From Escherichia coli (GTDB lineage: Bacteria > Pseudomonadota > Gammaproteobacteria > Enterobacterales > Enterobacteriaceae), in NCBI RefSeq assembly GCF_022846255.1, contig NZ_AP025682.1: a DNA stretch of 64,000 nucleotides; one strand, written 5' to 3'. Below, one piece after another: positions 687-38,005 of the stretch. How positions within the stretch are numbered: position 1 is the stretch's first letter; each line of letters starts with the position of its first letter. A program made the translations under genes and the position numbers. The notes beneath the pieces were generated by a model, which saw only the letters and a program-made list of their open reading frames with translations, ran no database searches and was not told the origin of the DNA.

Positions 687-721
<35 letters not shown>

Positions 722-5882: not shown

Positions 5883-6851
5883 TTGCACATTCCGCAAAGT
5901 AATAAAGACTGGAAGCCACCTATGAGTTTTATTGAATGTTACGAACCGGAATACGTGCGCAATTTTATGACGCAATATCCCGATTCGCCTTTGTACGTCC
6001 GCAAGGTCTGGAAGAATGAGATTCGCCAGAGCCTGGCATTGACCGATATTGAAAGTTGCAAAGCGGTGCTCAACGATGCCAGGGCCTTTGATTTACAGCT
6101 CACCTACCGCCCTGTGGAAGACAATGCCGCCGAGCTATCCGCGCGCGATGCGATAGTAAACCAGGCCATTTTGAGCACCCTTACGCTCCCCGATTTAACC
6201 CCGGAGCTTTCCCTGTATGCCGTCGGGATTTTGCTCTCCCGCGCCAGTAAAATGCCGGGCAGAGACGGAGATATTCTTGCCCGCTTGACGACGCTGCCAC
6301 AGGCGCTGGGGGATCATGCACAAAAAGGCACGCTACAGGCACAGTTCGCCCAACTCCCACCCGTGCCACAACTGGCGCGCCAACTGGTGACGCTGCTCGG
6401 GAGTTTTGCGTTTGACTGGTCGATTTTGCCGGAAAGCCCGCGCAAAGCCTCGCTACCGTTGCAGGTGACTTTGCTGACGTTGCATGACGCCAACAGCGAA
6501 GCTTTGTTGCAACAGCAGCTTAAGGTGCAGTGGCAAACCACCTGGCAACAGCATTTTGCCGCCGCGCCGTGGATGATGCGCAACTGGCTGATTTACCGAG
6601 TTTATCACGACGTGATTGGGCAGGCAGACGGAGCAGATTATTGCCCGCTGGTGTGTGATTTTTATCTCATCCGCACGTTAATCAGTTTATGGACGCTGGA
6701 TGGTTCTGCGCTGCGGCAGGAGGATATTTTCGCCCTCTTTGCCATGTTTGAACGCTGGCGGACCAGTGAAAATGCGCTGTTTATTCGCCAGCAAATTCAG
6801 TCGTTATGTGCCGCAGAGCCGCTGCTGTCAGCGTTTTCGCTGCTGACGTGA
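5883..6851 (+). CDS. Hypothetical protein in the Flag-2 variable region
   Basis: 322-aa ORF with no recognisable motif; located between lfgN and the glycosyltransferase gene. Confidence 0.5.
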   Translation: MHIPQSNKDWKPPMSFIECYEPEYVRNFMTQYPDSPLYVRKVWKNEIRQSLALTDIESCKAVLNDARAFDLQLTYRPVEDNAAELSARDAIVNQAILSTLTLPDLTPELSLYAVGILLSRASKMPGRDGDILARLTTLPQALGDHAQKGTLQAQFAQLPPVPQLARQLVTLLGSFAFDWSILPESPRKASLPLQVTLLTLHDANSEALLQQQLKVQWQTTWQQHFAAAPWMMRNWLIYRVYHDVIGQADGADYCPLVCDFYLIRTLISLWTLDGSALRQEDIFALFAMFERWRTSENALFIRQQIQSLCAAEPLLSAFSLLT

Positions 6852-6870
6852 GTCGCTCTGTGCGCGCTTT

Positions 6871-6980
6871 GCCCCTCACCCTAACCCTCTCCCCAAAGGG
6901 GCGAGGGGACCGATCGAGCACGGTGTTAAAATCGGCGCTGGTTTTCTCCCTCTCCCTGTGGGAGGGGGTCGGGGTGAGGG
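6871..6980. repeat. Intergenic palindromic repeat (CCCTCTCCC...GGGAGGGGG family), two inverted units
   Basis: gcccctcaccctaaccctctccccaaaggggcgagggg and ctccctctccctgtgggagggggtcggggtgaggg form nested inverted repeats; related copies at 23085-23140 and 25741-25824. Confidence 0.6.
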
Positions 6981-7029
6981 CATCAGCGCGCACATTCATC
7001 ACATTCACCCATTAACTCACCCAGACACC

Positions 7030-9484: not shown

Positions 9485-9561
9485 TGCCTGATGCGCTTCG
9501 CTTATCAGGCCTACGGATCGATCACGTCTTGTAGGCAGATAAGGCGTTTACGCCGCATCCG
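9485..9561. repeat. REP elements (two inverted units)
   Basis: tgcctgatgcgcttcgcttatcaggcctac and gtaggcagataaggcgtttacgccgcatccgg match the REP consensus. Confidence 0.7.
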
Positions 9562-9583
9562 GAAAGAAACAAACATCTCTGTG

Positions 9584-16456: not shown

Positions 16457-16584
16457 AGGGTGAACGATATAAGTAGCGACATTAATCAGGATGTTCTGAA
16501 GCGTATCACCGGTGGGATTAACAAGTTCGAATTAAACGATAATAAAAATATTATTTGTTTATAAACAATGAGTTATAACCGCAG

Positions 16585-16663
16585 GCCGGATAAAGCGTTT
16601 ACGCCGCATCCGGCAATCGTGCACCGGTGCCTGATGCGACGCTGCGCGTCTTATCAGGCCTAC
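16585..16663. repeat. REP elements (two units)
   Basis: gccggataaagcgtttacgccgcatccggc and gtgcctgatgcgacgctgcgcgtcttatcaggcctac. Confidence 0.7.
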
Positions 16664-20995: not shown

Positions 20996-23072
20996 ATCGT
21001 TCCTCGCGCCGCTGCGCGGCGGCAATCTCGGCGTGCCGTTGGTGATCCTGTGTATTCTGGCGATGGTTATTCTGCCGCTGCCGCCTGCGCTGCTGGATAT
21101 TCTGTTCACCTTCAACATTGTGCTGGCGGTGATGGTGCTGCTGGTGGCCGTGTCGGCGAAAAGGCCGCTGGAATTCAGCCTGTTCCCGACCATTTTGCTG
21201 ATCACCACCTTAATGCGTCTGACGCTTAACGTTGCTTCTACGCGCGTGGTGCTGCTACACGGGCATCTCGGCGCGGGCGCGGCGGGTAAGGTGATTGAGT
21301 CGTTTGGTCAGGTGGTGATTGGCGGCAACTTTGTCGTCGGTTTCGTGGTATTTATCATCCTGATGATCATCAACTTTATCGTCGTAACCAAGGGGGCCGA
21401 GCGTATTTCCGAGGTTTCTGCCCGCTTTACCCTGGACGCGATGCCCGGCAAACAGATGGCGATTGACGCCGATCTTAACGCCGGGTTGATCAACCAGACG
21501 CAGGCGCAAACCCGGCGTAAAGATGTCGCCAGCGAGGCCGATTTCTACGGCGCAATGGACGGGGCATCAAAATTTGTGCGCGGGGACGCCATCGCCGGGA
21601 TGATGATTCTGGCGATCAACCTGATCGGCGGCGTCTGTATCGGCATCTTCAAATACAACCTGAGCGCCGACGCCGCCTTCCAGCAATATGTGCTGATGAC
21701 TATCGGCGATGGGCTGGTGGCGCAAATCCCTTCCCTGCTGCTCTCCACCGCGGCGGCGATTATCGTCACCCGCGTCAGCGATAACGGTGATATCGCCCAT
21801 GACGTGCGTAATCAGTTGCTGGCAAGCCCGTCGGTTCTCTACACCGCCACTGGAATTATGTTCGTGCTGGCGGTGGTGCCGGGAATGCCGCATTTCCCGT
21901 TCCTGATGTTCAGCGCCCTGCTTGGTTTTACCGGCTGGCGGATGAGCAAGCGCCCGCAAGCGGCGGAGGCGGAAGAGAAAAGCCTCGAAACGCTAACCCG
22001 TACGATGACAGAAACCAGCGAGCAACAGGTCAGTTGGGAAACTATTCCGCTGATCGAACCTATCAGTTTAAGCCTCGGCTACAAACTGGTGGCGCTGGTG
22101 GATAAAGCGCAGGGCAACCCGCTCACCCAGCGTATTCGCGGCGTACGTCAGGTGATTTCCGACGGCAACGGCGTGCTGCTGCCGGAGATCCGTATTCGGG
22201 AAAACTTCCGTCTCAAGCCCAGCCAGTACGCCATTTTCATCAACGGCATTAAGGCTGATGAAGCGGATATTCCGGCGGATAAACTGATGGCCCTGCCCTC
22301 CAGCGAAACCTACGGCGAGATTGACGGCGTACTGGGGAATGACCCGGCATATGGGATGCCGGTCACCTGGATTCAGCCTGCGCAGAAAGCGAAGGCGCTG
22401 AATATGGGGTATCAGGTGATCGACAGCGCCAGCGTGATTGCCACCCATGTGAACAAGATTGTGCGCAGCTATATTCCTGACCTCTTTAACTATGACGATA
22501 TTACGCAGTTGCATAACCGCCTGTCGTCGATGGCACCGCGACTGGCGGAAGATTTGAGCGCGGCACTCAATTACAGCCAATTGCTGAAAGTGTACCGGGC
22601 GCTGCTGACCGAAGGCGTTTCCCTGCGCGATATCGTCACCATCGCCACCGTGCTGGTCGCCAGTAGTGCGGTGACCAAAGATCATATTCTGCTGGCGGCA
22701 GATGTGCGCCTGGCGCTGCGGCGCAGCATTACCCATCCGTTCGTTCGCAAGCAGGAGCTGACGGTGTATACGCTGAATAATGAGCTGGAAAATCTGCTGA
22801 CCAACGTGGTGAATCAGGCGCAACAGGCCGGCAAAGTGATGCTCGACAGCGTGCCAGTGGACCCGAATATGCTCAACCAGTTCCAGAGTACGATGCCGCA
22901 GGTAAAAGAGCAGATGAAAGCGGCGGGGAAAGATCCGGTGCTGCTGGTGCCTCCGCAGCTGCGCCCTTTGCTGGCGCGCTATGCAAGGTTGTTTGCGCCG
23001 GGGCTGCATGTGCTGTCGTATAACGAAGTGCCGGATGAGTTGGAGTTGAAGATAATGGGGGCGTTGAGTTGA
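20979..23072 (+). CDS. lfhA: Flagellar export gate protein FlhA
   Basis: 697 aa; FHxxK-type N-terminal TM region and large cytoplasmic domain. Confidence 0.9.
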   Translation: MAKTTKSFLAPLRGGNLGVPLVILCILAMVILPLPPALLDILFTFNIVLAVMVLLVAVSAKRPLEFSLFPTILLITTLMRLTLNVASTRVVLLHGHLGAGAAGKVIESFGQVVIGGNFVVGFVVFIILMIINFIVVTKGAERISEVSARFTLDAMPGKQMAIDADLNAGLINQTQAQTRRKDVASEADFYGAMDGASKFVRGDAIAGMMILAINLIGGVCIGIFKYNLSADAAFQQYVLMTIGDGLVAQIPSLLLSTAAAIIVTRVSDNGDIAHDVRNQLLASPSVLYTATGIMFVLAVVPGMPHFPFLMFSALLGFTGWRMSKRPQAAEAEEKSLETLTRTMTETSEQQVSWETIPLIEPISLSLGYKLVALVDKAQGNPLTQRIRGVRQVISDGNGVLLPEIRIRENFRLKPSQYAIFINGIKADEADIPADKLMALPSSETYGEIDGVLGNDPAYGMPVTWIQPAQKAKALNMGYQVIDSASVIATHVNKIVRSYIPDLFNYDDITQLHNRLSSMAPRLAEDLSAALNYSQLLKVYRALLTEGVSLRDIVTIATVLVASSAVTKDHILLAADVRLALRRSITHPFVRKQELTVYTLNNELENLLTNVVNQAQQAGKVMLDSVPVDPNMLNQFQSTMPQVKEQMKAAGKDPVLLVPPQLRPLLARYARLFAPGLHVLSYNEVPDELELKIMGALS

Positions 23073-23084
23073 TGGGGGAGACTA

Positions 23085-23140
23085 TATAAGGTCTCGGACT
23101 GTCCCCTCGCCCCTTTGGGGCGAGGGAGAAAAACGTGTAC
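23085..23140. repeat. Palindromic repeat (CCCCTCGCCCC...GGGGCGAGGG)
   Basis: gtcccctcgcccctttggggcgagggag perfect hairpin between convergent lfhA and yafL; same family as 6871-6980; could also act as a terminator. Confidence 0.6.
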
Positions 23141-23169
23141 GACTTTAACTTTTTCGCAGTATTGCCGTC

Positions 23170-23928
23170 CTACAAAATCGTCTCTTCCGTCAAAATCCGC
23201 CGCGCGCCTAAAAAATGATCCTGCCAGAAAGGTTCAGCTAACCGGCTTATCCGAATGGTTTCGCCGGTACGTGGTGACTCGATAAACTGACCGTCTCCCA
23301 GATACACCCCCATATGATCGGCTATCTCGCGGCTGTGAATATGGAAAAACAGCAAATCTCCCCGGCGCAGGTCGTTATTCGCCACAATCGTTGCCCGACG
23401 GTAGTGGTACATCTCATTGGCCGTGCGCGGGAGCTTAGCCTCAAGGATCTTGTTGTAGGCATAAAAAACCAACCCGCTACAGTCGAAGCCTTTATCAGGC
23501 CGCGTGCCCCCCCAGATATAAGGCTTACCTAGCTGCTGCTCCAGGCGGTGAATCGCCACTTCGGTGATGTTATGTAGATGGTCGCTGCTTAAGAAATGAT
23601 TATTCTCCACCAACGCCTGCCAGCGTCTGTCACTCGCCTTGAGCGGCGCAGGAAACCATTCTGGATGCTGTTTTATCTGCTCCCGATTATGCTGGCGCAG
23701 CGCCCTTCTGCTTTTGGCATTGCCTTCCACAATATAGCTGGCCTGCTTTTTCAGATGGGTTTGGTACTGTTTTAATAAACGCGCACGGTTTTGCATCCGC
23801 TGGCGGGCGGCGTAGCTAAAAGAGATATGTGATGTGGTGGCGCTGGCGAGTAAAGGGAGCAAAACGCATAACGAAAACACGCCTGGATGCAGAAATCTGC
23901 CGTGCAAGAACGAAGACATGAAGGACAT
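23170..23928 (-). CDS. yafL: NlpC/P60-family lipoprotein peptidase YafL
   Basis: DCSGLVFYAYN catalytic Cys motif and later His; signal peptide. Confidence 0.8.
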   Translation of the reverse strand: MSFMSSFLHGRFLHPGVFSLCVLLPLLASATTSHISFSYAARQRMQNRARLLKQYQTHLKKQASYIVEGNAKSRRALRQHNREQIKQHPEWFPAPLKASDRRWQALVENNHFLSSDHLHNITEVAIHRLEQQLGKPYIWGGTRPDKGFDCSGLVFYAYNKILEAKLPRTANEMYHYRRATIVANNDLRRGDLLFFHIHSREIADHMGVYLGDGQFIESPRTGETIRISRLAEPFWQDHFLGARRILTEETIL

Positions 23929-24230
23929 AAACCAGCTGAATGAAGGTGAGAATTTTAAAAGACCGGAGGAGTAAACGGGATTATTAATTGCTTATTTGCA
24001 TATTACTATTGCGGTTTCATAATCTTAGGAAATAAGAAATAAATCTACAATCCATGCGCTTTTCGGACTCTTGAAAACTGCCCCTGTGCTAAATTTGTAA
24101 ACCCTGCGCCGACAGGCTTGCGTAAAACTCTTTTGGTGATAATGTGAGCCTTCCAAATCCAGACTATTCCGATTTGGGATTCATTTTGCCGTCCTGGCGT
24201 GTGTAACCGTTTTATCAAGGAATAAGCAGT

Positions 24231-25709: not shown

Positions 25710-25740
25710 GGGTAACCTCCACAACAGCGGGAGCGCATGG

Positions 25741-25824
25741 CCCCCGGCGAAGATTGATTAAAAAGTAAAAAGGTGCAGGCTGTTACCCTCACCCCGGCCC
25801 TCTCCCTGAAAGGGAGAAAAGACC
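25741..25824. repeat. Palindromic repeat (CCCTCTCCCtgaaaGGGAGAAAAG)
   Basis: ccctcaccccggccctctccctgaaagggag; same repeat family as 6871-6980. Confidence 0.55.
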
Positions 25825-26403
25825 TTACTTAACCATCTCTTTTTCAATTAACTGGATCAGGATATGGATCACTTTAATGTGGATCTCCTGAATGCGGTCG
25901 GCATAACCAAAGTGCGGAACGCGAATTTCAATATCCGCCGTGCCAGCCATTTTGCCGCCGTCTTTACCGGTCAGGGTGATCACTTTCATCCCCTTCTCAC
26001 GCGCCGCCGCGATCGCTTTGATCACGTTTGCAGAGTTACCGGAAGTGGAGATCCCCAGCAGTACATCGCCTTCGCGACCTACCGCTTCAACGTAACGGGA
26101 GAAAATATCATTGAAACCAAAATCATTACCGACGCAGGAAATATGGCTGACGTCAGAAATGGCAATCGCCGGGTAGCCCGGACGGTTTTCACGGTAGCGA
26201 CCGGTCAACTCTTCGGCAAAGTGCATGGCGTCGCAATGGGAGCCGCCGTTGCCACAGGAAAGCACTTTGCCACCGGCTTTAAAGCTGTCTGCTAACAGGA
26301 CCGCCGCGCGCTGAATGGCGTGAATATTGGCGTCATCTTTTAAAAAGTTAGCCAGCGTTTCCGCCGCTTCGTTCAGTTCATTACGAATAAGATCCTGGTA
26401 CAT
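25825..26403 (-). CDS. gmhA: Phosphoheptose isomerase GmhA
   Basis: [17 protein letters not shown]... SIS domain, 192 aa; the ORF track's extended start at 26565 is upstream of the real ATG. Confidence 0.9.
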
Positions 26404-26642: not shown

Positions 26643-29087
26643 ATGATGATTTTGAGTATTCTCGCTACGGTTGTCCTGCTCGGCGCATTGTTCTATCACC
26701 GCGTGAGCTTATTTATCAGCAGTCTGATTTTGCTCGCCTGGACAGCCGTCCTCGGCGTTGCTGGTCTGTGGTCGGCGTGGGTACTAGTGCCTCTGGCCAT
26801 TATCCTCGTGCCATTTAACTTTGCGCCTATGCGTAAGTCGATGATTTCCGCACCGGTATTTCGCGGTTTCCGTAAGGTGATGCCGCCGATGTCGCGCACT
26901 GAGAAAGAAGCGATTGATGCGGGCACCACCTGGTGGGAGGGCGACTTGTTCCAGGGCAAGCCGGACTGGAAAAAGCTGCATAACTATCCGCAGCCGCGCC
27001 TGACCGCTGAAGAACAAGCGTTTCTCGACGGCCCGGTAGAAGAAGCCTGCCGGATGGCGAATGATTTCCAGATTACTCATGAGCTGGCGGACCTGCCGCC
27101 GGAGTTGTGGGCGTACCTTAAAGAGCATCGTTTCTTCGCGATGATCATCAAAAAAGAGTACGGTGGGCTGGAGTTCTCGGCTTATGCCCAATCTCGTGTG
27201 CTGCAAAAACTCTCCGGCGTGAGCGGGATCCTGGCAATTACCGTCGGCGTGCCGAACTCATTAGGCCCGGGCGAGCTGCTGCAACATTACGGCACTGACG
27301 AGCAGAAAAATCACTATCTGCCGCGTCTGGCGCGTGGTCAGGAGATCCCTTGCTTTGCACTGACCAGCCCCGAAGCGGGTTCCGATGCGGGCGCGATTCC
27401 GGATACCGGGATTGTCTGCATGGGCGAATGGCAGGGCCAGCAGGTGCTGGGGATGCGTCTGACCTGGAACAAACGCTACATTACGCTGGCACCGATTGCG
27501 ACCGTGCTTGGTCTGGCGTTTAAACTCTCCGACCCGGAGAAATTACTCGGCGGTGCAGAAGATTTAGGTATTACCTGTGCGCTGATCCCGACCACCACGC
27601 CGGGCGTGGAAATTGGTCGTCGCCACTTCCCGCTGAACGTACCGTTCCAGAACGGACCGACGCGCGGTAAAGATGTGTTCGTGCCGATCGATTACATCAT
27701 CGGCGGGCCGAAAATGGCCGGGCAAGGCTGGCGGATGCTGGTGGAGTGCCTCTCGGTAGGCCGCGGCATCACCCTGCCTTCCAACTCAACCGGCGGCGTG
27801 AAATCGGTAGCGCTGGCAACGGGTGCGTATGCGCACATTCGCCGTCAGTTCAAAATTTCTATTGGTAAGATGGAAGGGATTGAAGAGCCGCTGGCGCGTA
27901 TTGCCGGTAATGCCTATGTAATGGATGCTGCGGCATCGCTGATTACCTACGGCATTATGCTCGGTGAAAAACCCGCCGTGCTGTCGGCTATCGTTAAGTA
28001 TCACTGTACCCACCGCGGGCAGCAGTCGATTATTGATGCGATGGATATCACTGGTGGCAAAGGCATTATGCTCGGGCAGAGCAACTTCCTGGCCCGTGCT
28101 TACCAGGGGGCACCGATTGCCATCACCGTTGAAGGGGCAAATATTCTGACCCGTAGCATGATGATCTTCGGTCAGGGGGCGATTCGTTGCCATCCGTACG
28201 TGCTGGAAGAGATGGAAGCGGCGAAGAACAATGACGTTAACGCGTTCGATAAACTGCTGTTCAAACATATCGGTCACGTCGGTAGCAACAAAGTTCGCAG
28301 CTTCTGGCTGGGCCTGACGCGCGGTTTAACCAGCAGCACGCCAACCGGCGACGCCACTAAACGCTACTATCAGCATCTGAACCGCCTGAGTGCCAACCTC
28401 GCCCTGCTTTCTGATGTCTCGATGGCGGTGCTGGGCGGCAGCCTGAAACGTCGTGAGCGCATCTCGGCCCGTCTGGGGGATATTTTAAGCCAGCTTTACC
28501 TCGCCTCTGCCGTTCTGAAGCGTTATGACGACGAAGGCCGTAATGAAGCCGATCTGCCGCTGGTGCACTGGGGCGTACAGGATGCGCTGTATCAGGCAGA
28601 ACAGGCGATGGACGATTTACTGCAAAACTTCCCGAACCGTGTGGTTGCCGGGCTGCTGAATGTGGTGATCTTCCCGACCGGACGTCATTACCTGGCACCG
28701 TCTGACAAGCTGGATCATAAAGTGGCGAAGATTTTACAAGTACCGAACGCCACTCGTTCACGTATTGGTCGCGGTCAGTACCTGACGCCGAGCGAGCATA
28801 ACCCGGTTGGTTTACTGGAAGAGGCGCTGGTGGATGTGATTGCCGCCGACCCGATTCATCAGCGGATCTGTAAAGAGTTGGGTAAAAACCTGCCGTTTAC
28901 CCGTCTGGATGAACTGGCGCACAACGCGCTGGCGAAGGGGCTGATTGATAAAGATGAAGCCGCTATTCTGGTGAAAGCTGAAGAAAGCCGTCTGCGTAGT
29001 ATTAACGTTGATGACTTTGATCCAGAAGAGCTGGCGACGAAGCCGGTAAAGTTGCCGGAGAAAGTGCGGAAAGTTGAAGCCGCGTAA
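26643..29087 (+). CDS. fadE: Acyl-CoA dehydrogenase FadE
   Basis: 814 aa from [11 protein letters not shown]; N-terminal membrane segment plus acyl-CoA dehydrogenase domains. Confidence 0.9.
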
Positions 29088-29095
29088 TTGAATAA

Positions 29096-29120
29096 CGGAG
29101 CCTTTCGGCTCCGTTTTTTT
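29096..29120 (+). terminator. Rho-independent terminator between convergent fadE and ivy
   Basis: cggagcc-tttc-ggctccg stem-loop followed by TTTTTTT. Confidence 0.7.
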
Positions 29121-29129
29121 ATCGGCTAA

Positions 29130-29603
29130 TTATTTAAAATTAAAGCCATCCGGATGGTTTTCCAGGCTGCCGGTCAACGCCGCGAACAGCACCGTTTTAC
29201 CATCAATAGAAAGCGCATCGTTCACATTCAACCAGGTGAGTTTCTCTTGCGACGTTTTCTCATCAATGGTCGAGAACAGCCCCGTCATCTGATTAGATTT
29301 CTCGGACCACATCACAGCGATACGTTGCGAGCCACAGTCATGCGGTTTGCACGCGCTCATCACCTGATACGTCTCATCTCCCAACGTTACGGTTTGTGCA
29401 GGGGTATAAGTACCGCCTTTCATCACCCAGGCCGGCAGCTTATGCCCTTGCACCATCTGATTAAACGCCGCTTTGGTGGTTTCGCCCTTTGCAAGACTGC
29501 TAATGGTTAAATCATCCTGCGCCATTGCACTGGTGGCGATGACCAGAGCGGCGACTGTCGTTATTGCCTTAAACATCATTCCTCCCGGGCTTATCCTGCC
29601 CAT
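29130..29603 (-). CDS. ivy: Inhibitor of vertebrate lysozyme Ivy
   Basis: 157-aa periplasmic protein with the CKPHDCG motif typical of Ivy. Confidence 0.85.
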   Translation of the reverse strand: MGRISPGGMMFKAITTVAALVIATSAMAQDDLTISSLAKGETTKAAFNQMVQGHKLPAWVMKGGTYTPAQTVTLGDETYQVMSACKPHDCGSQRIAVMWSEKSNQMTGLFSTIDEKTSQEKLTWLNVNDALSIDGKTVLFAALTGSLENHPDGFNFK

Positions 29604-29756
29604 GTGATTAACTCCCTAAAGCCTGGCGATAACACGATAATTTGCAAATCAGATATTTCCAATATCAGCATTTGTTATCAATTTATTCTGCGCTAAGGCA
29701 ACTGCCTGATAAGGTGTTAGAGTTATAAAACCCTTCGCATAAAGGAGTTGTACACC

Positions 29757-30527
29757 GTGCCTGGTTTGAAGATTACGCTTTTGCAGCAACCACTGGTGTG
29801 GATGGATGGTCCTGCCAACCTGCGCCATTTTGATCGTCAACTGGAAGGTATTACCGGGCGCGATGTGATCGTTCTACCGGAGATGTTTACCAGCGGCTTT
29901 GCCATGGAAGCGGCAGCTTCGTCGCTAGCACAAGATGACGTAGTGAACTGGATGACAGTCAAAGCGCAGCAGTGCAATGCGCTGATTGCAGGCAGTGTTG
30001 CATTACAAACGGAGTCTGGTTCGGTTAACCGCTTTTTGCTGGTTGAGCCGGGCGGCACGGTACATTTTTATGATAAGCGTCATCTGTTCCGCATGGCAGA
30101 TGAGCATCTACATTATAAAGCGGGCAATGCGCGAGTGATTGTGGAATGGCGCGGCTGGCGTATTTTGCCGCTGGTGTGCTACGACTTACGTTTTCCGGTG
30201 TGGTCGCGCAATCTCAACGATTATGACCTCGCCCTGTACGTCGCCAACTGGCCTGCTCCGCGCTCTCTACACTGGCAGGCATTGCTGACAGCCCGCGCGA
30301 TTGAGAATCAGGCGTATGTGGCGGGATGCAATCGCGTCGGCAGCGATGGCAACGGCTGCCATTATCGTGGTGACAGCCGGGTGATTAATCCGCAAGGCGA
30401 GATTATCGCTACTGCCGACGCGCATCAGGCAACGCGCATTGATGCGGAGCTGTCGATGATGGCATTGCGGGAATATAGAGAAAAGTTTCCGGCATGGCGG
30501 GATGCGGATGAGTTTAGGTTGTGGTGA
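29757..30527 (+). CDS. yafV: Nitrilase-family omega-amidase YafV
   Basis: CN-hydrolase family (LPEMF, CYDLRFP motifs); GTG start at 29757. Confidence 0.85.
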   Translation: MPGLKITLLQQPLVWMDGPANLRHFDRQLEGITGRDVIVLPEMFTSGFAMEAAASSLAQDDVVNWMTVKAQQCNALIAGSVALQTESGSVNRFLLVEPGGTVHFYDKRHLFRMADEHLHYKAGNARVIVEWRGWRILPLVCYDLRFPVWSRNLNDYDLALYVANWPAPRSLHWQALLTARAIENQAYVAGCNRVGSDGNGCHYRGDSRVINPQGEIIATADAHQATRIDAELSMMALREYREKFPAWRDADEFRLW

Positions 30528-30552
30528 GTGGGTGTTGTGTTTAGGGCCGGGG

Positions 30553-31770
30553 AGAGTCAGGGTAAGACTACGAAAGCCCGCTCCCAGCAAGGACTGACGC
30601 CAGGTAGTTTCTGTCCATGGCTGCTTTTCGCATCTTACGTCTTAACCCTGCCTTGAATACATTATCATTCGTTAAAATATTAATAGCGATGTGCCGTATC
30701 CCTGAAAATAATTCTGCTGCATTTCCTCTTCTTATTTTGCAGTCGTCTTCATTCATTACCACGTCCAGACGCCAGTGCAGCTTATTCTCCACGTGCCAGT
30801 GGTTTCGGATTGCTGTGGCGAACTTCTCTGCGGTTAAATCAGCAGAACTGATATAATATCTGACCGTCATTTCTGGCTCTTTCTTTTGTTCTGCTATTAT
30901 TGACCGAAAGGAGACTGCCACGCATAATTTCTTCAGACCTTTCCATTCAAACATGAAATCAATAAGTTCATCAGGGACATCGCAAACAATGTGAAGACGG
31001 ATTTCTTCTCTGCCGTGACTTTTTTCACTAATTGCGTAACTGTCATGCTCTGGATTATTTAATTCTTTCAGTGGGAATTTTTCCTCAAAGGCTTTATTAA
31101 GCCGCCCCTGATTTCCTTTTACAGCGAATAAATAATCACCGCCCTGTTTTTGTATCTTCTCTGCGATATCTTTCTGGCAACCCATCGCATCAGTTGTGAT
31201 AATTTTTCCTTTAATATCCAACATGTTAAGAAGTTCATGGATAGCTGTGATCTCATTGGATTTCTCATCCGTCCTGATCTGTCCGATGACCAGACTGTGC
31301 ATTGTTGAGAACGCACTAATGACATGAATCGCTCCCCTGCGGCGACTCTTGTCATAAGAATGCCGGAGCGTTTTTCCATCAATTGCAATAACGTCTTTAT
31401 CATCTGAAGAATGGCAGTCACGCATCCAGTTAATAAAGCACTCGTGAAATTTTGCAGGACTGATACAGGATACAACTCTGGCAATGGTATCGTGAACAGG
31501 AATACCATTTTCAAAATCACCATATTGCTTCAAAAAATCGAGATGTGTTTCCCCAAAATCCTCTATATCTTCCCAGCCTTCTGCACCAGAAATAACGGCA
31601 CAAATAGTCAACAGTAGAATACCCGATAATTTATGTTCCACTTTCCAGGCTTGTCTGTAATCGGGGATAATAGAAATATGTTCCATCAATTTTTTAAGTT
31701 CCATTTTGTTCTACTTAATTATGTAAGGAGTATTTGATCATGTATACGCAATAAAAAACAGCTTCAGGTA
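30553..31770 (-). mobile_element. H-repeat (H-rpt) element, ISAs1-family, copy A (intact)
   Basis: 1214-bp unit directly repeated at 31767-32985; encodes a 378-aa DDE transposase-like H-repeat-associated protein. Confidence 0.8.
30568..31704 (-). CDS. H-repeat-associated protein / ISAs1-family transposase
   Basis: 378 aa, [27 protein letters not shown]..., resembles the YhhI/YdcC H-rpt protein family. Confidence 0.85.
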
Positions 31771-32985
31771 ACAGGGCAAGATTACGAAAGCCCGCTCCCC
31801 GCAAGGACTGACGCCAGATAGTTTCTGTCCATGGCTGCTTTTCGCATCTTACGTCTTAACCCTGCCTTGAATACCTTATCATTCGTCAAAATATTAATAG
31901 CGATGTGCCGTATCCCTGAAAATAATTCTGCTGCATTTCCTCTTCTTATTTTGCAGTCGTCTTCATTCATTACCACGTCCAGACGCCAGTGCAGCTTATT
32001 CTCCACGTGCCAGTGGTTTCGGATTGCTGTGGCGAACTTCTCTGCGGTTAAATCAGCAGAACTGATATAATATCTGACCGTCATTTCTGGCTATTTCTTT
32101 TGTTCTGCTATTATGGACCGAAAGGAGACTGCCACGCATAATTTCTTCAGTCCTTTCCATTCAAACGTGAAATCAATAAGTTCATCAGGGACATCGCAAA
32201 CAATATGAAGACGGATTTCTTCTCTGCCGTGACTTTTTTCACTAATTGCGTAACTGTCATGCTCTGGATTATTCAATTCTTTCAGCGGAAATTTTTCCTC
32301 GAAGGCTTTATTTAGCCGCCCCTGGTTTCCTTTTACAGCGAATAAATAATCACCTCCCTGTTTTTGTATCTTCTCTGCAATATCTTTCTGGCAACCCATC
32401 GCATCAGTTGTGATGATTTTTCCTTTAATATCCAGCATGTTAAGAAGTTCAGGGATAGCTGTAATTTCATTGGATTTCTCATCCGTCCTGATCTGTCCGA
32501 TGACCAGACTGTGCATTGTTGAGAACGCACTAATGACATGAATCGCTCCCCTGCGGCGACTCTTGTCATAAGAATGTCGGAGCGTTTTTCCATCAATTGC
32601 AATAACGTCTTTATCATCTGAAGAATGGCAGTCACGCATCCAGTTAATAAAGCACTCGTGAAATTTTGCAGGACTGATACAGGATACAACTCTGGCAATG
32701 GTATCGTGAACAGGAATACCATTTTCAAAATCACCATATTGCTTCAAAAAATCGAGATGTGTTTCCCCAAAATCCTCTATATCTTCCCAGCCTTCTGCAC
32801 CAGAAATAACGGCACAAATAGTCAACAGTAGAATATCCGATAATTTATGTTCCACTTTCCAGGCTTGTCTGTAATCGGGGATAATAGAAATATGTTCCAT
32901 CAATTTTTTAAGTACCATTTTGTTCTCCTTAATTATGTAAGGAGTATTTGATCATGTATAAGCAATAAAAAACAGCTTCAGGTAA
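31767..32985 (-). mobile_element. H-repeat element copy B (tandem direct repeat of copy A)
   Basis: Near-identical to copy A with a 1214-bp offset, flanking sequence included. Confidence 0.8.
31782..32918 (-). pseudogene. H-repeat-associated transposase gene disrupted by a nonsense mutation
   Basis: GAG to TAG change at 32091-32093 relative to copy A splits the ORF into 275-aa and 100-aa pieces. Confidence 0.8.
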
Positions 32986-33147
32986 TGAGGAATATCTCAA
33001 TTTTTAAACATAAAATGCGAATTATTTAGTACAAAAAAGCAGCGTTACGTGATCTTTCCCTGACTGTGTAGGAAAACAGGTTTCCAAGCCCTTCCGAACC
33101 ATTCATGCCTGCAAACAAAAGCAGCTGCGGCGGCACCGCACTACCAC

Positions 33148-33468
33148 TTACTGTGACGTTATGCGCCCCGGACCACCGGCAGCAAGCGACGCCGCCGCAT
33201 CCTGAACTGCACCAGCCATATCCGAGATCCCTGCTGCTGCAGCGGCAGCCTGCGCAGCAGCTACTGCTGCTTTAACCAGACCTGACGGTTCCGGCAACGC
33301 ACCAAACAGGTCCGCCGCTGCCTGTTCTGCCATCTCCTCGGCGGCACCAGATACATCGGTTACGGCTGAACCTGTGCTCATACCGCCACTTTCGCCAGCT
33401 ATTGGTGGTGTGGTGATGACGGGTCCACCGTTTCCAGCTGGTTTGTTACCCGTAGATACAAAACTCAT
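33148..33468 (-). CDS. Hypothetical Ala/Gly-rich small protein
   Basis: 106-aa ORF, low-complexity composition; coding status uncertain. Confidence 0.3.
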
Positions 33469-33492
33469 GATATTTATTCCTTTAATATCGGA

Positions 33493-33864
33493 TTAGAATT
33501 TAGCGCCCGGCTGCCAGAAAAAATAAGAAATAACCCGCCACTGTCCATCTTTATAATGAAAAAAACATGTCAGATTTAAATCCCCCCGCAAATGCCAAAA
33601 CATTTCTTTGATGGGAATATTTCTGAATTCAGTATTCGTTGAGCGATAGGTGTTTTCAATTTCTATATAATACTCACCGACAAATTTATAACGAGGCTTT
33701 ATAAATTCATACGCTGGCTGACCATAGTTATTTAATAGAACATTCTCTTCAACTCCATTATACACACCACTCGCATTCAGATAAGCATGCCCAGGAATAT
33801 CAGACATGCTATTTTTCGCCCCACCCACTATCAAAAAAATTATCACAGCGTATATTAGTTTCAT
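33493..33864 (-). CDS. Small secreted protein, candidate immunity protein for the upstream zincin-like protein
   Basis: N-terminal signal peptide (MKLIYAVIIFLIVGGA); 4-nt overlap with the upstream gene. Confidence 0.5.
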   Translation of the reverse strand: MKLIYAVIIFLIVGGAKNSMSDIPGHAYLNASGVYNGVEENVLLNNYGQPAYEFIKPRYKFVGEYYIEIENTYRSTNTEFRNIPIKEMFWHLRGDLNLTCFFHYKDGQWRVISYFFWQPGAKF

Positions 33865-34601
33865 TTTTTTACGCTTTTCACAAAAAAATTAGAACCCGGA
33901 ACCATTCTATTTAACCGCTCAATGACATTTCTCATATAACGAGAGCGCAGTTCCATACCAATATTCATTAACGCACTGGCGTCCCCGGAGAATGGTGTAG
34001 TTGCTTTATCTGCATCATCACTATAGTATTCATCAGCAAGATATCCAATAATATGCCCAAGCTCGTGAGACAGCCCTATTTGCTCATGGCAAACTTTTGA
34101 TGAGCCAAGACATTTAGCTGCTGCAACTATATCTTTAGAGTCAAGTTCAACGTATCGACTATTCCAGACAATGGAACTCTGTCGAAAACTATTTGGATCA
34201 TCATTATCAATTTTAAACACCACCACATCCCAATACCCATGACGATCAGTCTGAATTATTTCTATTGAGAAAGATAAATCCTTACCATTAAACTTACTGG
34301 CAAACTCAGACTTCCCAGAAACGGATAAAAAAATCTTATTATTCCATGTTTGATTAATGACAAAAATAACTTTCCCATGAAAGGCATTTTTCTCCAAATC
34401 TGTCCAGTCAGTTTTTGCATCCCATCTTTTTATCCAATTATATTTCCATCTCAGCAACAATGAGATTGCACCATTTTCACGGTCAATTCTTAAATCTCCC
34501 CAGGCATCATTGTCCCTGATATATCGTTTATCCAGCATTAAGTCGTCATAAGCATCGTATGCCTGCTGAATAGCTTCATCATGAGAGTCACCCATGTTCA
34601 C
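33861..34601 (-). CDS. Putative zinc metallopeptidase (HExxH zincin), candidate T6SS effector
   Basis: HELGHIIGYLADEY motif; located in the T6SS effector array and paired with a signal-peptide protein. Confidence 0.5.
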   Translation of the reverse strand: MNMGDSHDEAIQQAYDAYDDLMLDKRYIRDNDAWGDLRIDRENGAISLLLRWKYNWIKRWDAKTDWTDLEKNAFHGKVIFVINQTWNNKIFLSVSGKSEFASKFNGKDLSFSIEIIQTDRHGYWDVVVFKIDNDDPNSFRQSSIVWNSRYVELDSKDIVAAAKCLGSSKVCHEQIGLSHELGHIIGYLADEYYSDDADKATTPFSGDASALMNIGMELRSRYMRNVIERLNRMVPGSNFFVKSVKK

Positions 34602-34802
34602 CTCCTTATATTGCTATATATCCAATAAACCTGAAGATGCTTGCTTACCCACCAACGCAGACGGGACCAAGGGTAGCCTGAAGTCAACAGATAGCAGTCA
34701 ACTTGAAGTTCATGGGGATATTTGTTTCCCCATCTACACGTTTATCGTCATATTTTTGTATAGCTATTCTCAGCATTCGTGGGTAGATTATTTTTTTCCA
34801 AC

Positions 34803-34915
34803 CGCAGCGCATCCACATACCGCCCCTCGCTGTTCTGCTGCCACAACCAGCCCTGCCCCTGCTGCGCCTGCGTTAACATTTTTGCTAGCCAGCACGGTCA
34901 CGGCAGGCAATTCCA
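34803..34915 (-). repeat. Degenerate duplicate of the 3' end of tagF
   Basis: ~76 bp near-identical to 35897-35972, then a diverged related stretch; direct orientation. Confidence 0.75.
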
Positions 34916-34924
34916 TGACAGGTA

Positions 34925-35398
34925 CTACTCATCCGTACAACCCAGCCCCCGGCGCTGAACCACTTCACTGGCAAACGTAGCTCCGGTTTTTTTCATTATT
35001 CCTTTTTGTATTTTTTGCAGCGCGGGAAATGAGATTCTCCTGCATGAATCCTCTTCCCATATATCACCAGTTACAGGACTAACTGAAAATAGTCCCCACA
35101 CATCTGTCGCTCCGGCGGAAGGAGAATCATAACCTACCCCAAAACTAAAATACCCAGGATGATACAGGTTACCTTTTTTATCTTTCAGAGAACCGTCAAG
35201 AAAAAACCCAGACAATTCCACATTATATTTTTCATTTTTTAGTGAAAAAACCAATAATGCCTGCGCCTGTATTTCAGTAAGACCTGACTGGTTAACAGTC
35301 GTTAGATCAAACCGCGGCACATTCCTGATAAGAATTTCAGCACAACAATTCACGGACACGACCATGAAAAGCAATACTGATATTAATTTACAGGACAT
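34925..35398 (-). CDS. Secreted protein, candidate immunity protein for the GH73-like effector
   Basis: Signal peptide (MSCKLISVLLFMVVSVNC); overlaps the upstream effector-like gene. Confidence 0.5.
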   Translation of the reverse strand: MSCKLISVLLFMVVSVNCCAEILIRNVPRFDLTTVNQSGLTEIQAQALLVFSLKNEKYNVELSGFFLDGSLKDKKGNLYHPGYFSFGVGYDSPSAGATDVWGLFSVSPVTGDIWEEDSCRRISFPALQKIQKGIMKKTGATFASEVVQRRGLGCTDE

Positions 35399-35853
35399 GT
35401 TATTCTCCGCTTAACCATATTAATCACCCACACTAACTCACTAGCATAACCGGTATGGCCGCCATTACTGTTTTTACCTGAATTAAAACCAGAATCAATC
35501 AATGCCTGCGCAAATTGCTCCGGAGATTTTTTATTTCTGACCGCATTACCAAATCGGATTGCAAAGGACTTTCCGCTAGTTGAAAAAAAGGTATAAGTGG
35601 CAACCCACACTTGATTACTCCCCAGCGGGTGAACCTGTCCTGACTGTAAAGGTGCCGGACCATGCATGGAAAAGTAGTTATTGTATTCTGTCGCGATTCT
35701 ACCCTGCCCGTAAAAGGACTCCTTTGCAGCAAGCCCCAGGATATTTTCCACAGGCACATCAAGTTGCTTAGCGATTAATTCACATTCTTTCAGATATTGC
35801 TGTACAAACCTGACTGCACCAGTGTTATTACAGGCTTTATCATAAGACCCCAT
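35383..35853 (-). CDS. Glucosaminidase (GH73/FlgJ-like) domain protein, candidate T6SS peptidoglycan glycoside hydrolase effector
   Basis: LGLAAKESFYGQGRIATEYNNYFSMHG resembles the FlgJ/GH73 catalytic region; no signal peptide; small (156 aa). Confidence 0.55.
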   Translation of the reverse strand: MGSYDKACNNTGAVRFVQQYLKECELIAKQLDVPVENILGLAAKESFYGQGRIATEYNNYFSMHGPAPLQSGQVHPLGSNQVWVATYTFFSTSGKSFAIRFGNAVRNKKSPEQFAQALIDSGFNSGKNSNGGHTGYASELVWVINMVKRRITCPVN

Positions 35854-35880
35854 GATTCACTACTCCTTGTCTGATTATTT

Positions 35881-36651
35881 TTAATGCGGCCGGATATCCA
35901 GCCGCAACGCATCCACATACCGCCCCTCGCTGTTCTGCTGCCAGAACCAGCCCTGCCCCTGCTGCGCCTGCGTCAGCATTTTGTCCGGCCAGCCCGGCCA
36001 CGGCAGGTGGCGCACACCGGGCAGTTCCACTACCGGCACGTCCGGCAGGCCGGTGAGTTCCCGGCTACGCTGCGGTACACGTCGTAAGCCGCGTAGCCAC
36101 TGCGCCCAGCGCGGCCCCGGTCGCCACATCGCCCAGAGCTGGTCTGTCTGCTCCGCCAGTCGACCGCAGCGTTCTGTCTGTGGTGAGACATGAGCTGCCG
36201 TCAACTGCGCCAGCCAGTACAGCCAGCCCTGTGTGTCATCCAGGCTCTCTTCCAGCCATTCCCGCCCGACACGCTGGTAAATCACCAGTGGCCACGGCCT
36301 GCCCGTACTGTCACGCGAGGCGGTCAGGACCCCGGTCAGCCACTCATCGCGCCCGCCAATGGGGAGAAATCCCGGCGACAGCACAAAACTCCACGGCAAT
36401 GGGTGGTGCTCCGGTAGTGCCGTTTTCTCACGTGGTGACAGGTGCATCCAGCCGTCATTTGTTCCGGCCTTCGCAGCATCCGTTCCTTCCGGCAGAACAA
36501 TATGCCGTCCCTGTCCCAGCCACGTTTGCTGGTTCAGCCACGCCTGCCACACCTGCCCTTCGTTCGCGCTCACTCGCCAGCGCACATAGTCCCGCTGGTC
36601 CGGCAGTCTGCCGAACATCGCCGGGGCCGATATCTCTGCCCGGCGCATCAC
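35881..36651 (-). CDS. tagF: T6SS-associated protein TagF (DUF2094 family)
   Basis: N-terminal FGRLPDQRDYVRWR resembles the TagF GKLPxxGDFVxR signature; Trp-rich; follows tssM as in SPI-6-type clusters. Confidence 0.6.
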   Translation of the reverse strand: MMRRAEISAPAMFGRLPDQRDYVRWRVSANEGQVWQAWLNQQTWLGQGRHIVLPEGTDAAKAGTNDGWMHLSPREKTALPEHHPLPWSFVLSPGFLPIGGRDEWLTGVLTASRDSTGRPWPLVIYQRVGREWLEESLDDTQGWLYWLAQLTAAHVSPQTERCGRLAEQTDQLWAMWRPGPRWAQWLRGLRRVPQRSRELTGLPDVPVVELPGVRHLPWPGWPDKMLTQAQQGQGWFWQQNSEGRYVDALRLDIRPH

Positions 36652-36836
36652 AACGTCCTTACCGGACAGGTGAAGTTTTTCAGCAATTCCCGGTAATACA
36701 GAACATAATTCTTCATTTCAATAATAAAGTCAGATATCAGGATTAATTTTCTTCCACAGGAATCAGAGCATTTATAATAAAATCGCTCAGGCATCCCCCC
36801 AACAAAGAGAACAGGAATCAGCTTCCAATAAAATTG

Positions 36837-37313
36837 TTAATTCAGTTCCCAGAACCAGATTTCCTTGCAGCTAAAATAGCAATGTGAATGACATATAGCA
36901 CCTGTGGTAGAAGGCTCAATAAGATCTATATGACCGCCACCGTAACCCGTAATTTTCCAGAAAAAGACCACTCCTCTTTTATTACTGGTGTCTGTTTTAA
37001 ATTTTTCTGAGTCACACCAGATAACTGGTCTTCCAAAAACATCAGCTCGGGAAAGCTGATCTGCCAGTAATTTCGCACCGGTTTCTATTTTCTTCCCTTT
37101 CCAGTCACCACTTTTGATCGTCAGTCGCCCGTTAAAGCTGACGCCTGATTTAATCAGCGCCAGACTCATACGTGTGGCACAGGTATTTACATAACCAGCA
37201 TTTTGCTGTTGCAGTGCTTCATAGTTATAACCCACTTCACTGTACAAAACATCACCATCAATCTGAACTGATGAGTAATGGTTTTTTTTAAGTGTGAAAA
37301 ATGAAGGTTTCAT
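36837..37313 (-). CDS. Tae4-like type VI amidase effector (papain-like Cys/His peptidoglycan amidase)
   Basis: AGYVNTCATRMSLAL (Cys) and GGGHIDLIEP (His) resemble the Tae4 catalytic motifs as I recall them; 158 aa, no signal peptide. Confidence 0.55.
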   Translation of the reverse strand: MKPSFFTLKKNHYSSVQIDGDVLYSEVGYNYEALQQQNAGYVNTCATRMSLALIKSGVSFNGRLTIKSGDWKGKKIETGAKLLADQLSRADVFGRPVIWCDSEKFKTDTSNKRGVVFFWKITGYGGGHIDLIEPSTTGAICHSHCYFSCKEIWFWELN

Positions 37314-38005
37314 TTATTATTTCCTTTATCACAGGAGTGTTTACTTAGTGCCTCAATAATAATATTTGCAGCCCGTTCATTCAGTTTATCTGACGTTTTT
37401 TTTCTGAAATACCAGTAAATAATCTCATCCAGTGTAACTGTTTTAATCGTTTTATAATCGCACCATGTTTTTCTTTCCGTGGCATCTTCTATACCCAAAA
37501 GATAGATTTTCGCATTAAGCCTATCCTGCCTGTTATCTGACTGCCAGAAGCGGAAAAAATCATCTCCGTTCAGATCGAACGCGCCAGAGGTCAGGTGTGA
37601 AACAGATGAATGCCGGGGAGATTTTTTTTCCGGTGATGCCATATCCGGGCAGGGAAACAGCCTGACCATCGCTTGTTCAATCAGAGTTGAAGCTCGCATA
37701 TTCATATCGTTAACCGACTGCTGATTAAGATATGTCAGTACCGATGAATAAAGTTCTATTTCATTAATCTTATTATATCCACACCAGGTTTTACTTTCTG
37801 TCGCATCACTCACACCAAGGACATACATCAGAACATTTTCTTTTTCCTGTGACGTTCCACGAGCATAAAATGACAAAAATTCCTGCGCACTGAGATTAAT
37901 ATAATCGGGGTCAATAGTTCCTGTGTTTTTTCTGATATCAGCAAAAACATTTCCTGACATGGCATATAACAAAAAAATAATAAAAAAACGCGTATATTGT
38001 TGCAT
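37310..38005 (-). CDS. Secreted tandem-repeat protein, candidate immunity protein (two ~100-aa repeats each with paired Cys)
   Basis: Signal peptide; internal duplication (VLGVSDATESKTWCGYNKI... / LLGIEDATERKTWCDYKTI...). Confidence 0.5.
   Translation of the reverse strand: MQQYTRFFIIFLLYAMSGNVFADIRKNTGTIDPDYINLSAQEFLSFYARGTSQEKENVLMYVLGVSDATESKTWCGYNKINEIELYSSVLTYLNQQSVNDMNMRASTLIEQAMVRLFPCPDMASPEKKSPRHSSVSHLTSGAFDLNGDDFFRFWQSDNRQDRLNAKIYLLGIEDATERKTWCDYKTIKTVTLDEIIYWYFRKKTSDKLNERAANIIIEALSKHSCDKGNNK

Follow-up and report, generated by a model that had tools for sequence, protein, structure and literature searches.

Intergenic repeats variously named BoxC, PIT (potential intrastrand triplex), and TMECO have been described in E. 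coli since the 1990s (Holder et al., 2015, PMC4666352, and earlier work cited there). The published BoxC/TMECO consensus reads CCCTCNCCC-N3-6-GGGNGAGGG-N3-GGGNGAGGG (PMC4666352). Units are of two types, A with a TTA loop and B with a CCG or TCG loop, and inverted A+B pairs are frequent; K-12 harbors five such inverted pairs, each composed of one A and one B unit (PMC4666352). CD and NMR have shown that, in vitro, the G-rich strand adopts a stable intrastrand purine-motif triplex; the oligonucleotides studied represented both TMECO types of K-12, A and B, either fully matched or carrying one mismatched triplet. No BoxC triplex has been detected in vivo (PMC4666352). Deletions that leave a simple hairpin have been termed the 'palindrome effect' (Holder et al., PMC4666352), and the DNA around BoxC elements is more variable than control sites (PMC4666352). 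Published accounts (Holder et al., 2015) already cover the family, its two types, their pairing, the collapse to hairpins, and the absence of terminator activity.

REP, BIME, and REPIN elements are likewise short GC-rich extragenic palindromes that often form inverted heterodimers, as BoxC units do at site 1 of the DNA analyzed here and at site 2 in strains E300010 and GPT24-02, but the likeness is one of form only. BoxC lacks the GTAG tag and the AA/GC bulge, is unrelated in sequence, and has an extra third G block. Whereas REPs number in the hundreds, BoxC is present at about 20 copies per genome, and BoxC was not found to flank rayT. The two classes do share intergenic slots of like kind, and other strains have REPs exactly at the BoxC spots described below, in the lfhA-yafL and lpcA-yafJ gaps. 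Rho-independent terminators and REP-type mRNA 3' stabilizers resemble BoxC in placing a stable GC-rich stem-loop just 3' of stop codons. In contrast to these, the BoxC stem has no U-tract, and published reporter tests on BoxC were negative.

The window, i.e., the whole 64-kb stretch of DNA that was analyzed (64,000 nucleotides), is E. coli chromosome and covers the Flag-2 lateral-flagella cluster, then lfhA(flhA)-yafL-dpaA-yafJ-lpcA-fadE. A first-pass annotation of its sequence had described a dispersed family of hairpin-forming intergenic repeats at three sites and had set it apart from the canonical REPs at 687, 9485, and 16585. Profile and pattern searches, folding, and a survey of complete genomes bear out the first point, and the lack of sequence relationship bears out the second. 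Comparison with catalogued repeats adds that the family is already on record as BoxC / PIT / TMECO, which had gone unrecognized. To judge from their sequence, the three GC-rich palindromes are BoxC (also PIT or TMECO) copies at differing stages of decay. Their BoxC identity, anatomy, and dispersal are matters of observation, as is an allelic series of deletion and inversion. The favored reading, held at a probability of roughly 0.85, is that all three sites are BoxC copies and constitute structure-prone DNA without a dedicated gene-regulatory job, the visible effect of which is local instability.

The window copies share with the described family the three-block consensus, A and B loop types, a strictly intergenic location, about 20 places per genome, inverted A+B pairs, hairpin-leaving deletions, and strain variability. 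Nothing essential differs; decay has taken two of the three window copies outside the full consensus. K-12 has no BoxC copies at the three loci (Flag-2 cluster, lfhA-yafL, and lpcA-yafJ), where it carries REPs or nothing.

Anatomy and dispersal of the BoxC units

BoxC is a non-coding, non-autonomous intergenic repeat, present in essentially all E. coli genomes. Its core consists of three 9-nt blocks. Block 1 (CCCTCNCCC) and block 2 (GGGNGAGGG) form a Watson-Crick hairpin, and when the DNA is single-stranded, block 3 (GGGTGAGGG) can fold onto it as a third strand. Four units, all intergenic, are distributed over three sites in the window:

6859-6994, no single strand: site 1, complete BoxC inverted heterodimer, type A on minus and type B on plus (<- ->), outer inverted repeat GTGCGCGC...GCGCGCAC included
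6872-6907, minus: U1, whose type A 'mm' core is CCCTCGCCCCTTTGGGGAGAGGGTTAGGGTGAGGGG and whose second loop is TTA, an exact consensus match (nhmmer match 6873-6907, minus, E=3e-12)
6908-6947, no single strand: spacer of the site 1 pair, mostly family-typical 5' flanks, GACCGATCGAGCAC (type A, reverse complement) and GCTGGTTTTCT (type B)
6948-6981, plus: U2, whose type B core is CCCTCTCCCTGTGGGAGGGGGTCGGGGTGAGGGC and whose second loop is TCG, with tail CATCAGCGCGCAC to 6993 (nhmmer match 6948-6980, plus, E=2e-4)
23090-23135, plus: site 2 (U4), collapsed A/B pair, with type A 5' flank GGTCTCGGACTGTC, block 1, TTT loop, GGGGCGAGGG, then AGAAAAACG, and no third block (nhmmer match 23104-23126, plus, E=8e-3)
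25772-25825, minus: site 3 (U3), single type B unit with a CCG second loop and tail TAACAGCCTGCACC, blocks 2 and 3 exact (nhmmer match 25786-25817, minus, E=3e-8)

The nhmmer profile was built from the 23 K-12 BoxC units of Holder et al. (2015, Table 1) and nothing else, and its search against the 64-kb window returned exactly four significant units, all within the three sites. In a pattern search of the window, the full published consensus has an exact match at 6873-6907 (minus), with zero matches expected in shuffled sequence. The hairpin part (blocks 1 and 2) matches at 6885-6907 and 23104-23126, again with zero expected in shuffles, and the two-G-block pattern alone is found at 6873-6893 (minus), at 25786-25806 (minus), and, with one mismatch in U2, at 6960-6980 (plus). 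Site 1 fits the consensus in full; the fit at sites 2 and 3 is that of decayed copies. Unit by unit, U1 is exact, U2 has one substitution in block 2, U3 retains exact blocks 2 and 3 with a block 1 that is 6 bp shorter, and U4 comprises blocks 1 and 2 only.

Comparison of flanks extends the agreement beyond the core, as the window units match the type-specific flanks and tails of K-12 units. U1 is base-for-base identical to K-12 TMECO copies 7, 11, and 15. U2 differs from K-12 copy 20 by one mismatch, and its flank and tail are those of K-12 copies 1 and 20. Site 1 obeys the A+B inverted pairing rule of K-12, as does the pair that E300010 and GPT24-02 carry at site 2.

A genome-wide search, of the kind that had been proposed as a check, reveals a dispersed family, not unique sequences. 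Of 5426 complete E. coli genomes, all but one (5425) contain matches to a 144-nt query taken from positions 6855-6998 of the window; the median genome has 18 such places, and plasmids account for 58 of the 89453 places. The canonical REPs of the window (687-720 and 16581-16614) and its BIME (9486-9562) are unrelated in sequence to the BoxC units. Rfam places naRNA4, a nucleoid-associated ncRNA (79 bits), at 16584-16660, overlapping the REP at 16581-16614. For the BoxC repeats themselves, no Rfam family reaches its gathering score; E-value mode yielded only sub-threshold eukaryotic miRNA-precursor models, which were set aside as generic long hairpins. The K-12 RefSeq annotation has no feature over BoxC pairs and is therefore unusable as a check.

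Folding predictions for site 1 lie far beyond shuffled controls, at -92.1 kcal/mol for RNA (z = -8.7) and -44.2 kcal/mol for DNA (z = -7.6), where only Watson-Crick pairing is modeled. The arms of site 1 (6859-6893 and 6960-6994) are 80% complementary, and the whole is an imperfect 136-nt palindrome; an intact pair of this kind could extrude a hairpin of about 136 nt. The RNA hairpin predicted at site 2 is smaller, at -27 kcal/mol. Within U1, the type A 'mm' block 1 (CCCTCGCCC; window 6870-6912, minus) can pair with block 3 via G.T or with block 2 via a G.A mismatch. The predicted DNA fold of the same interval favors the block 1-block 3 hairpin, so that a unit of this kind has two alternative hairpins.

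Convergent gene ends, named in the first-pass annotation along with operon boundaries as the setting of the repeats, are found only at site 2, which lies between convergent lfhA (flhA; stop 23070-23072) and yafL. The other two sites lie between co-directional genes. Site 1 sits in a 178-bp gap between a lysine-N-methylase gene (stop 6849-6851) and a glycosyltransferase gene (ATG 7030). At site 3, between lpcA and yafJ on the minus strand, U3 abuts the lpcA stop (25825-27) upstream of yafJ (start codon 25709), and positions 25741-25771 are flank, not part of the element.

Allelic variation at the three loci

All three sites differ among strains, in which the element is present, flipped, absent, or substituted by REP/BIME. 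Site 1 was surveyed in 40 records, an even sample of the 1278 genomes holding the locus. The pair is present in 23 of these records, and 16 carry an allele that is about 135 bp shorter. Two of the shorter alleles, from NQ3 and JJ2434, were read and have no element, an unrelated 46-bp gap, and diverged flanks. In TUM18530, the orthologous segment (L136, 460-575) contains the pair flipped between the same outer inverted repeats, with each unit down to two blocks; its alignment score to window site 1 is 147 against the reverse complement versus 77 in direct orientation.

The site 2 sequence suggested how it arose. Its type A flank runs into AGAAAAACG, the reverse complement of the type B 5' flank, and this arrangement predicted a pair collapsed by deletion between direct-repeat blocks. 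Alignment with E300010 and GPT24-02 confirms the prediction, as both strains have a full A-> <-B pair at the same spot that is 64 bp longer. The 64 bp lost from the window lie between the direct repeats GGGGnGAGGG. The collapsed allele occurs in 127 genomes, and its junction reads CGAGGG in the window versus AGAGGG in SC418, which implies different crossover points or more than one deletion event.

Most other strains fill the lfhA-yafL gap (window 23073-23169) with REP arrays, with or without rayT. K-12 and many other strains have REPs, rayT, and REPs in exactly this gap (compared at L003 2274-3169, L126 874-2086, and L128 874-1690). The rayT gene is found in 3575 of 5426 complete E. coli genomes and is missing from about 34%. 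Strains CB209 and 472 retain a 12-nt BoxC remnant (CCTTTGGGGCGA) beside the REP array in this gap, which suggests that the REP/rayT cassette arrived in a slot already holding BoxC. In the neighboring yafL-dpaA gap (window ~23920-24220), the window has no dinJ-yafQ toxin-antitoxin pair, as in SC418; the pair is present in K-12 and KN13-4.

At site 3, block 1 of U3 is shortened by a 6-bp deletion, with one copy of the GGGAGA direct repeat gone in the window, KN13-4, and SCU-172; SC418 is intact (CCCTCTCCCTTTCAGGGAGAGGGCCGGGGTGAGGG). The yafJ-lpcA slot (window 25710-25824) carries the BoxC allele in 329 genomes and a single REP or BIME in the five other strains read (cf. L003 6305-6509). The exchanged BoxC/REP/BIME segment is sharply bounded, with GATTGATT and GACCTTAC as the shared limits on its two sides. 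The idea that strains fall into two haplotypes in strict linkage, one with BoxC and no rayT and the other with REP and rayT, was discarded in view of SCU-172, a rayT-bearing strain whose site 3 allele is the BoxC allele of the window.

These alleles show BoxC copies to be structure-prone DNA that undergoes slippage deletions where direct blocks recur, inversions between opposed arms, and replacement of whole alleles. Site 2 is the remnant of a pair after the 64-bp deletion between direct-repeat blocks, and site 3 is a type B monomer that lost its 6 bp by slippage. Replication slippage on the folded strand is the presumed cause of the deletions. The BoxC copies most likely have no dedicated gene-regulatory job, and their main effect is probably local instability, because deletion and flipping appear in the sequences and the literature describes a triplex that forms in vitro, elements inactive as promoters or terminators, and variable surroundings. 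The three loci provide a natural series for structure-driven deletion, comprising an intact pair, a flipped pair, a collapsed pair, a slipped monomer, and a REP-replaced allele.

The three-block core in other lineages and the question of mobility

Among the matches listed, the exact three-block pattern occurs mainly in Mitsuaria chitosanitabida and in three MAGs (Methylomirabilota, Contendobacter, and an unclassified bacterium), with no enterobacterial copies; this contig pattern scan shows breadth, not distribution. Across lineages, the blocks are conserved, and the loops and flanks are lineage-specific. Occurrence in distant lineages agrees with the wide BoxC distribution already reported. 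The recurrence of the three-block core in distant phyla is not explained by pure neutrality.

The loci from M. chitosanitabida (L012-L118) contain at least 145 exact-pattern copies. All 27 of the 27 close pairs are arranged <- -> and bounded by CCCGAAGA and TCTTCGGG, and the spacers within pairs range from 30 to 272 nt and are often rich in tandem repeats. A search for a gene recurring beside the Mitsuaria BoxC units produced no candidate, its yield being limited to small groups of overlapping ORFs in high-GC DNA.

BoxC pairs might be REPIN- or MITE-like mobile units copied by a putative enzyme, with single units and bare hairpins as their decay products. The strict A+B rule of pairs would fit such units, as would the decay from pair to bare hairpin seen at site 2 and the multi-copy core of distant lineages, including the uniformly oriented Mitsuaria pairs. 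Yet most E. coli copies reside at fixed orthologous loci (PMC4666352), and 1.07 Mb of Mitsuaria and MAG loci contain neither a multi-copy gene recurring beside the units nor a RayT homologue. At sites 1 and 3, neither a clean empty site nor a target-site duplication turned up, and neither site reveals an insertion mechanism: the BoxC-less alleles of site 1 have diverged flanks, and at site 3 the whole GATTGATT-GACCTTAC segment is swapped for REP/BIME. Mobility of this kind is judged unlikely. A more elaborate version holds that the pairs are REPIN-like and mobile, that the core is kept across phyla for recognition of the folded strand by a copying enzyme or host factor, and that the REP/rayT cassette then invaded the BoxC-held lfhA-yafL slot; it is a shade less likely still. 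The BoxC/REP exchange near the rayT locus could be of interest to research on REPIN/RAYT evolution.

Proposed transcript-level roles, RayT, and the setting of the window

The first-pass annotation suggested that the repeats may act as terminators or mRNA stabilizers. BoxC hairpins would then work on RNA, either as transcription terminators or as 3'-exonuclease barriers that stabilize upstream mRNA, like some REPs. All three sites lie 0-30 nt 3' of a stop codon, and the RNA hairpins predicted at sites 1 and 2 (-92 and -27 kcal/mol) are strong, but terminator and promoter scans of the window report no BoxC hairpin. An intrinsic terminator combines a GC-rich stem-loop with a following U-tract. 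No U-run is found 3' of the hairpin at sites 1 and 2 on either strand, and type B units have their T-run 5' of the hairpin, not 3'.

Only the tail hairpin of site 3 approaches the terminator arrangement. On the lpcA-sense strand, a second hairpin, made from block 3 and the tail, precedes UUUUUACUUUUU (U5ACU5 in RNA, T5ACT5 in DNA). The lpcA-yafJ slot holds a BoxC or REP hairpin in every strain inspected, and some 3'-end hairpin could be selected there. Because the K-12 single units inspected all lack a T-run on their 3' side, the one at site 3 belongs to this allele and does not characterize the family. Site 1, for its part, is missing from 16 of the 40 evenly sampled Flag-2 records. As summarized in Holder et al. 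(PMC4666352), reporter assays by Hoyne & Maher showed no promoter or terminator activity of these elements. The suggestion of terminators or stabilizers thus goes unsupported, and a role on RNA is considered improbable, slightly more so than either form of mobility. For annotation, these sites are appropriately labeled BoxC, not REP and not terminators.

Far less credible is the proposal, also raised in the first-pass annotation, that the BoxC repeats are substrates of E. coli RayT (TnpA-REP) and hence a second REP class. The inverted doublet at site 1 resembles REPINs, K-12 rayT occupies the same lfhA-yafL gap as site 2, and CB209 and 472 retain their BoxC remnant beside a REP array. However, for E. 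coli TnpA-REP the GTAG must be unaltered, and a stem bulge is likewise required (PMC8266576). The BoxC units are without the required bulge, and neither GTAG nor CTAC occurs within 25 nt of any of the four units. When E. coli RayT was used as a tblastn query, neither the window nor the BoxC-rich loci of other phyla gave a match. BoxC is present in essentially all complete E. coli genomes, including the approximately one third from which rayT is missing. In the five strains inspected (K-12, CUVET17-1136, CB209, 472, and SCU-172), rayT is flanked by y/z2 REPs and never by BoxC, and a literature search returned no paper connecting BoxC to RAYTs or REPINs. Last, the view that the BoxC likeness is a chance by-product of GC-rich intergenic sequence is rejected, given that shuffles yield zero expected matches, profile E-values reach 3e-12, and one unit is identical to K-12 copies.

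Farther along the window, positions 29000-37500 are not covered to 80% or more by any complete E. coli genome, which marks the start of an unusual insertion or island. An ISAs1/ISEc1-like region beside yafV contains a 300-nt direct repeat (30558-30857 and 31772-32071) whose copies are 98% identical and 1214 bp apart, and a second repeat of 111 nt (34797-34907 and 35897-36007) is 90% identical.
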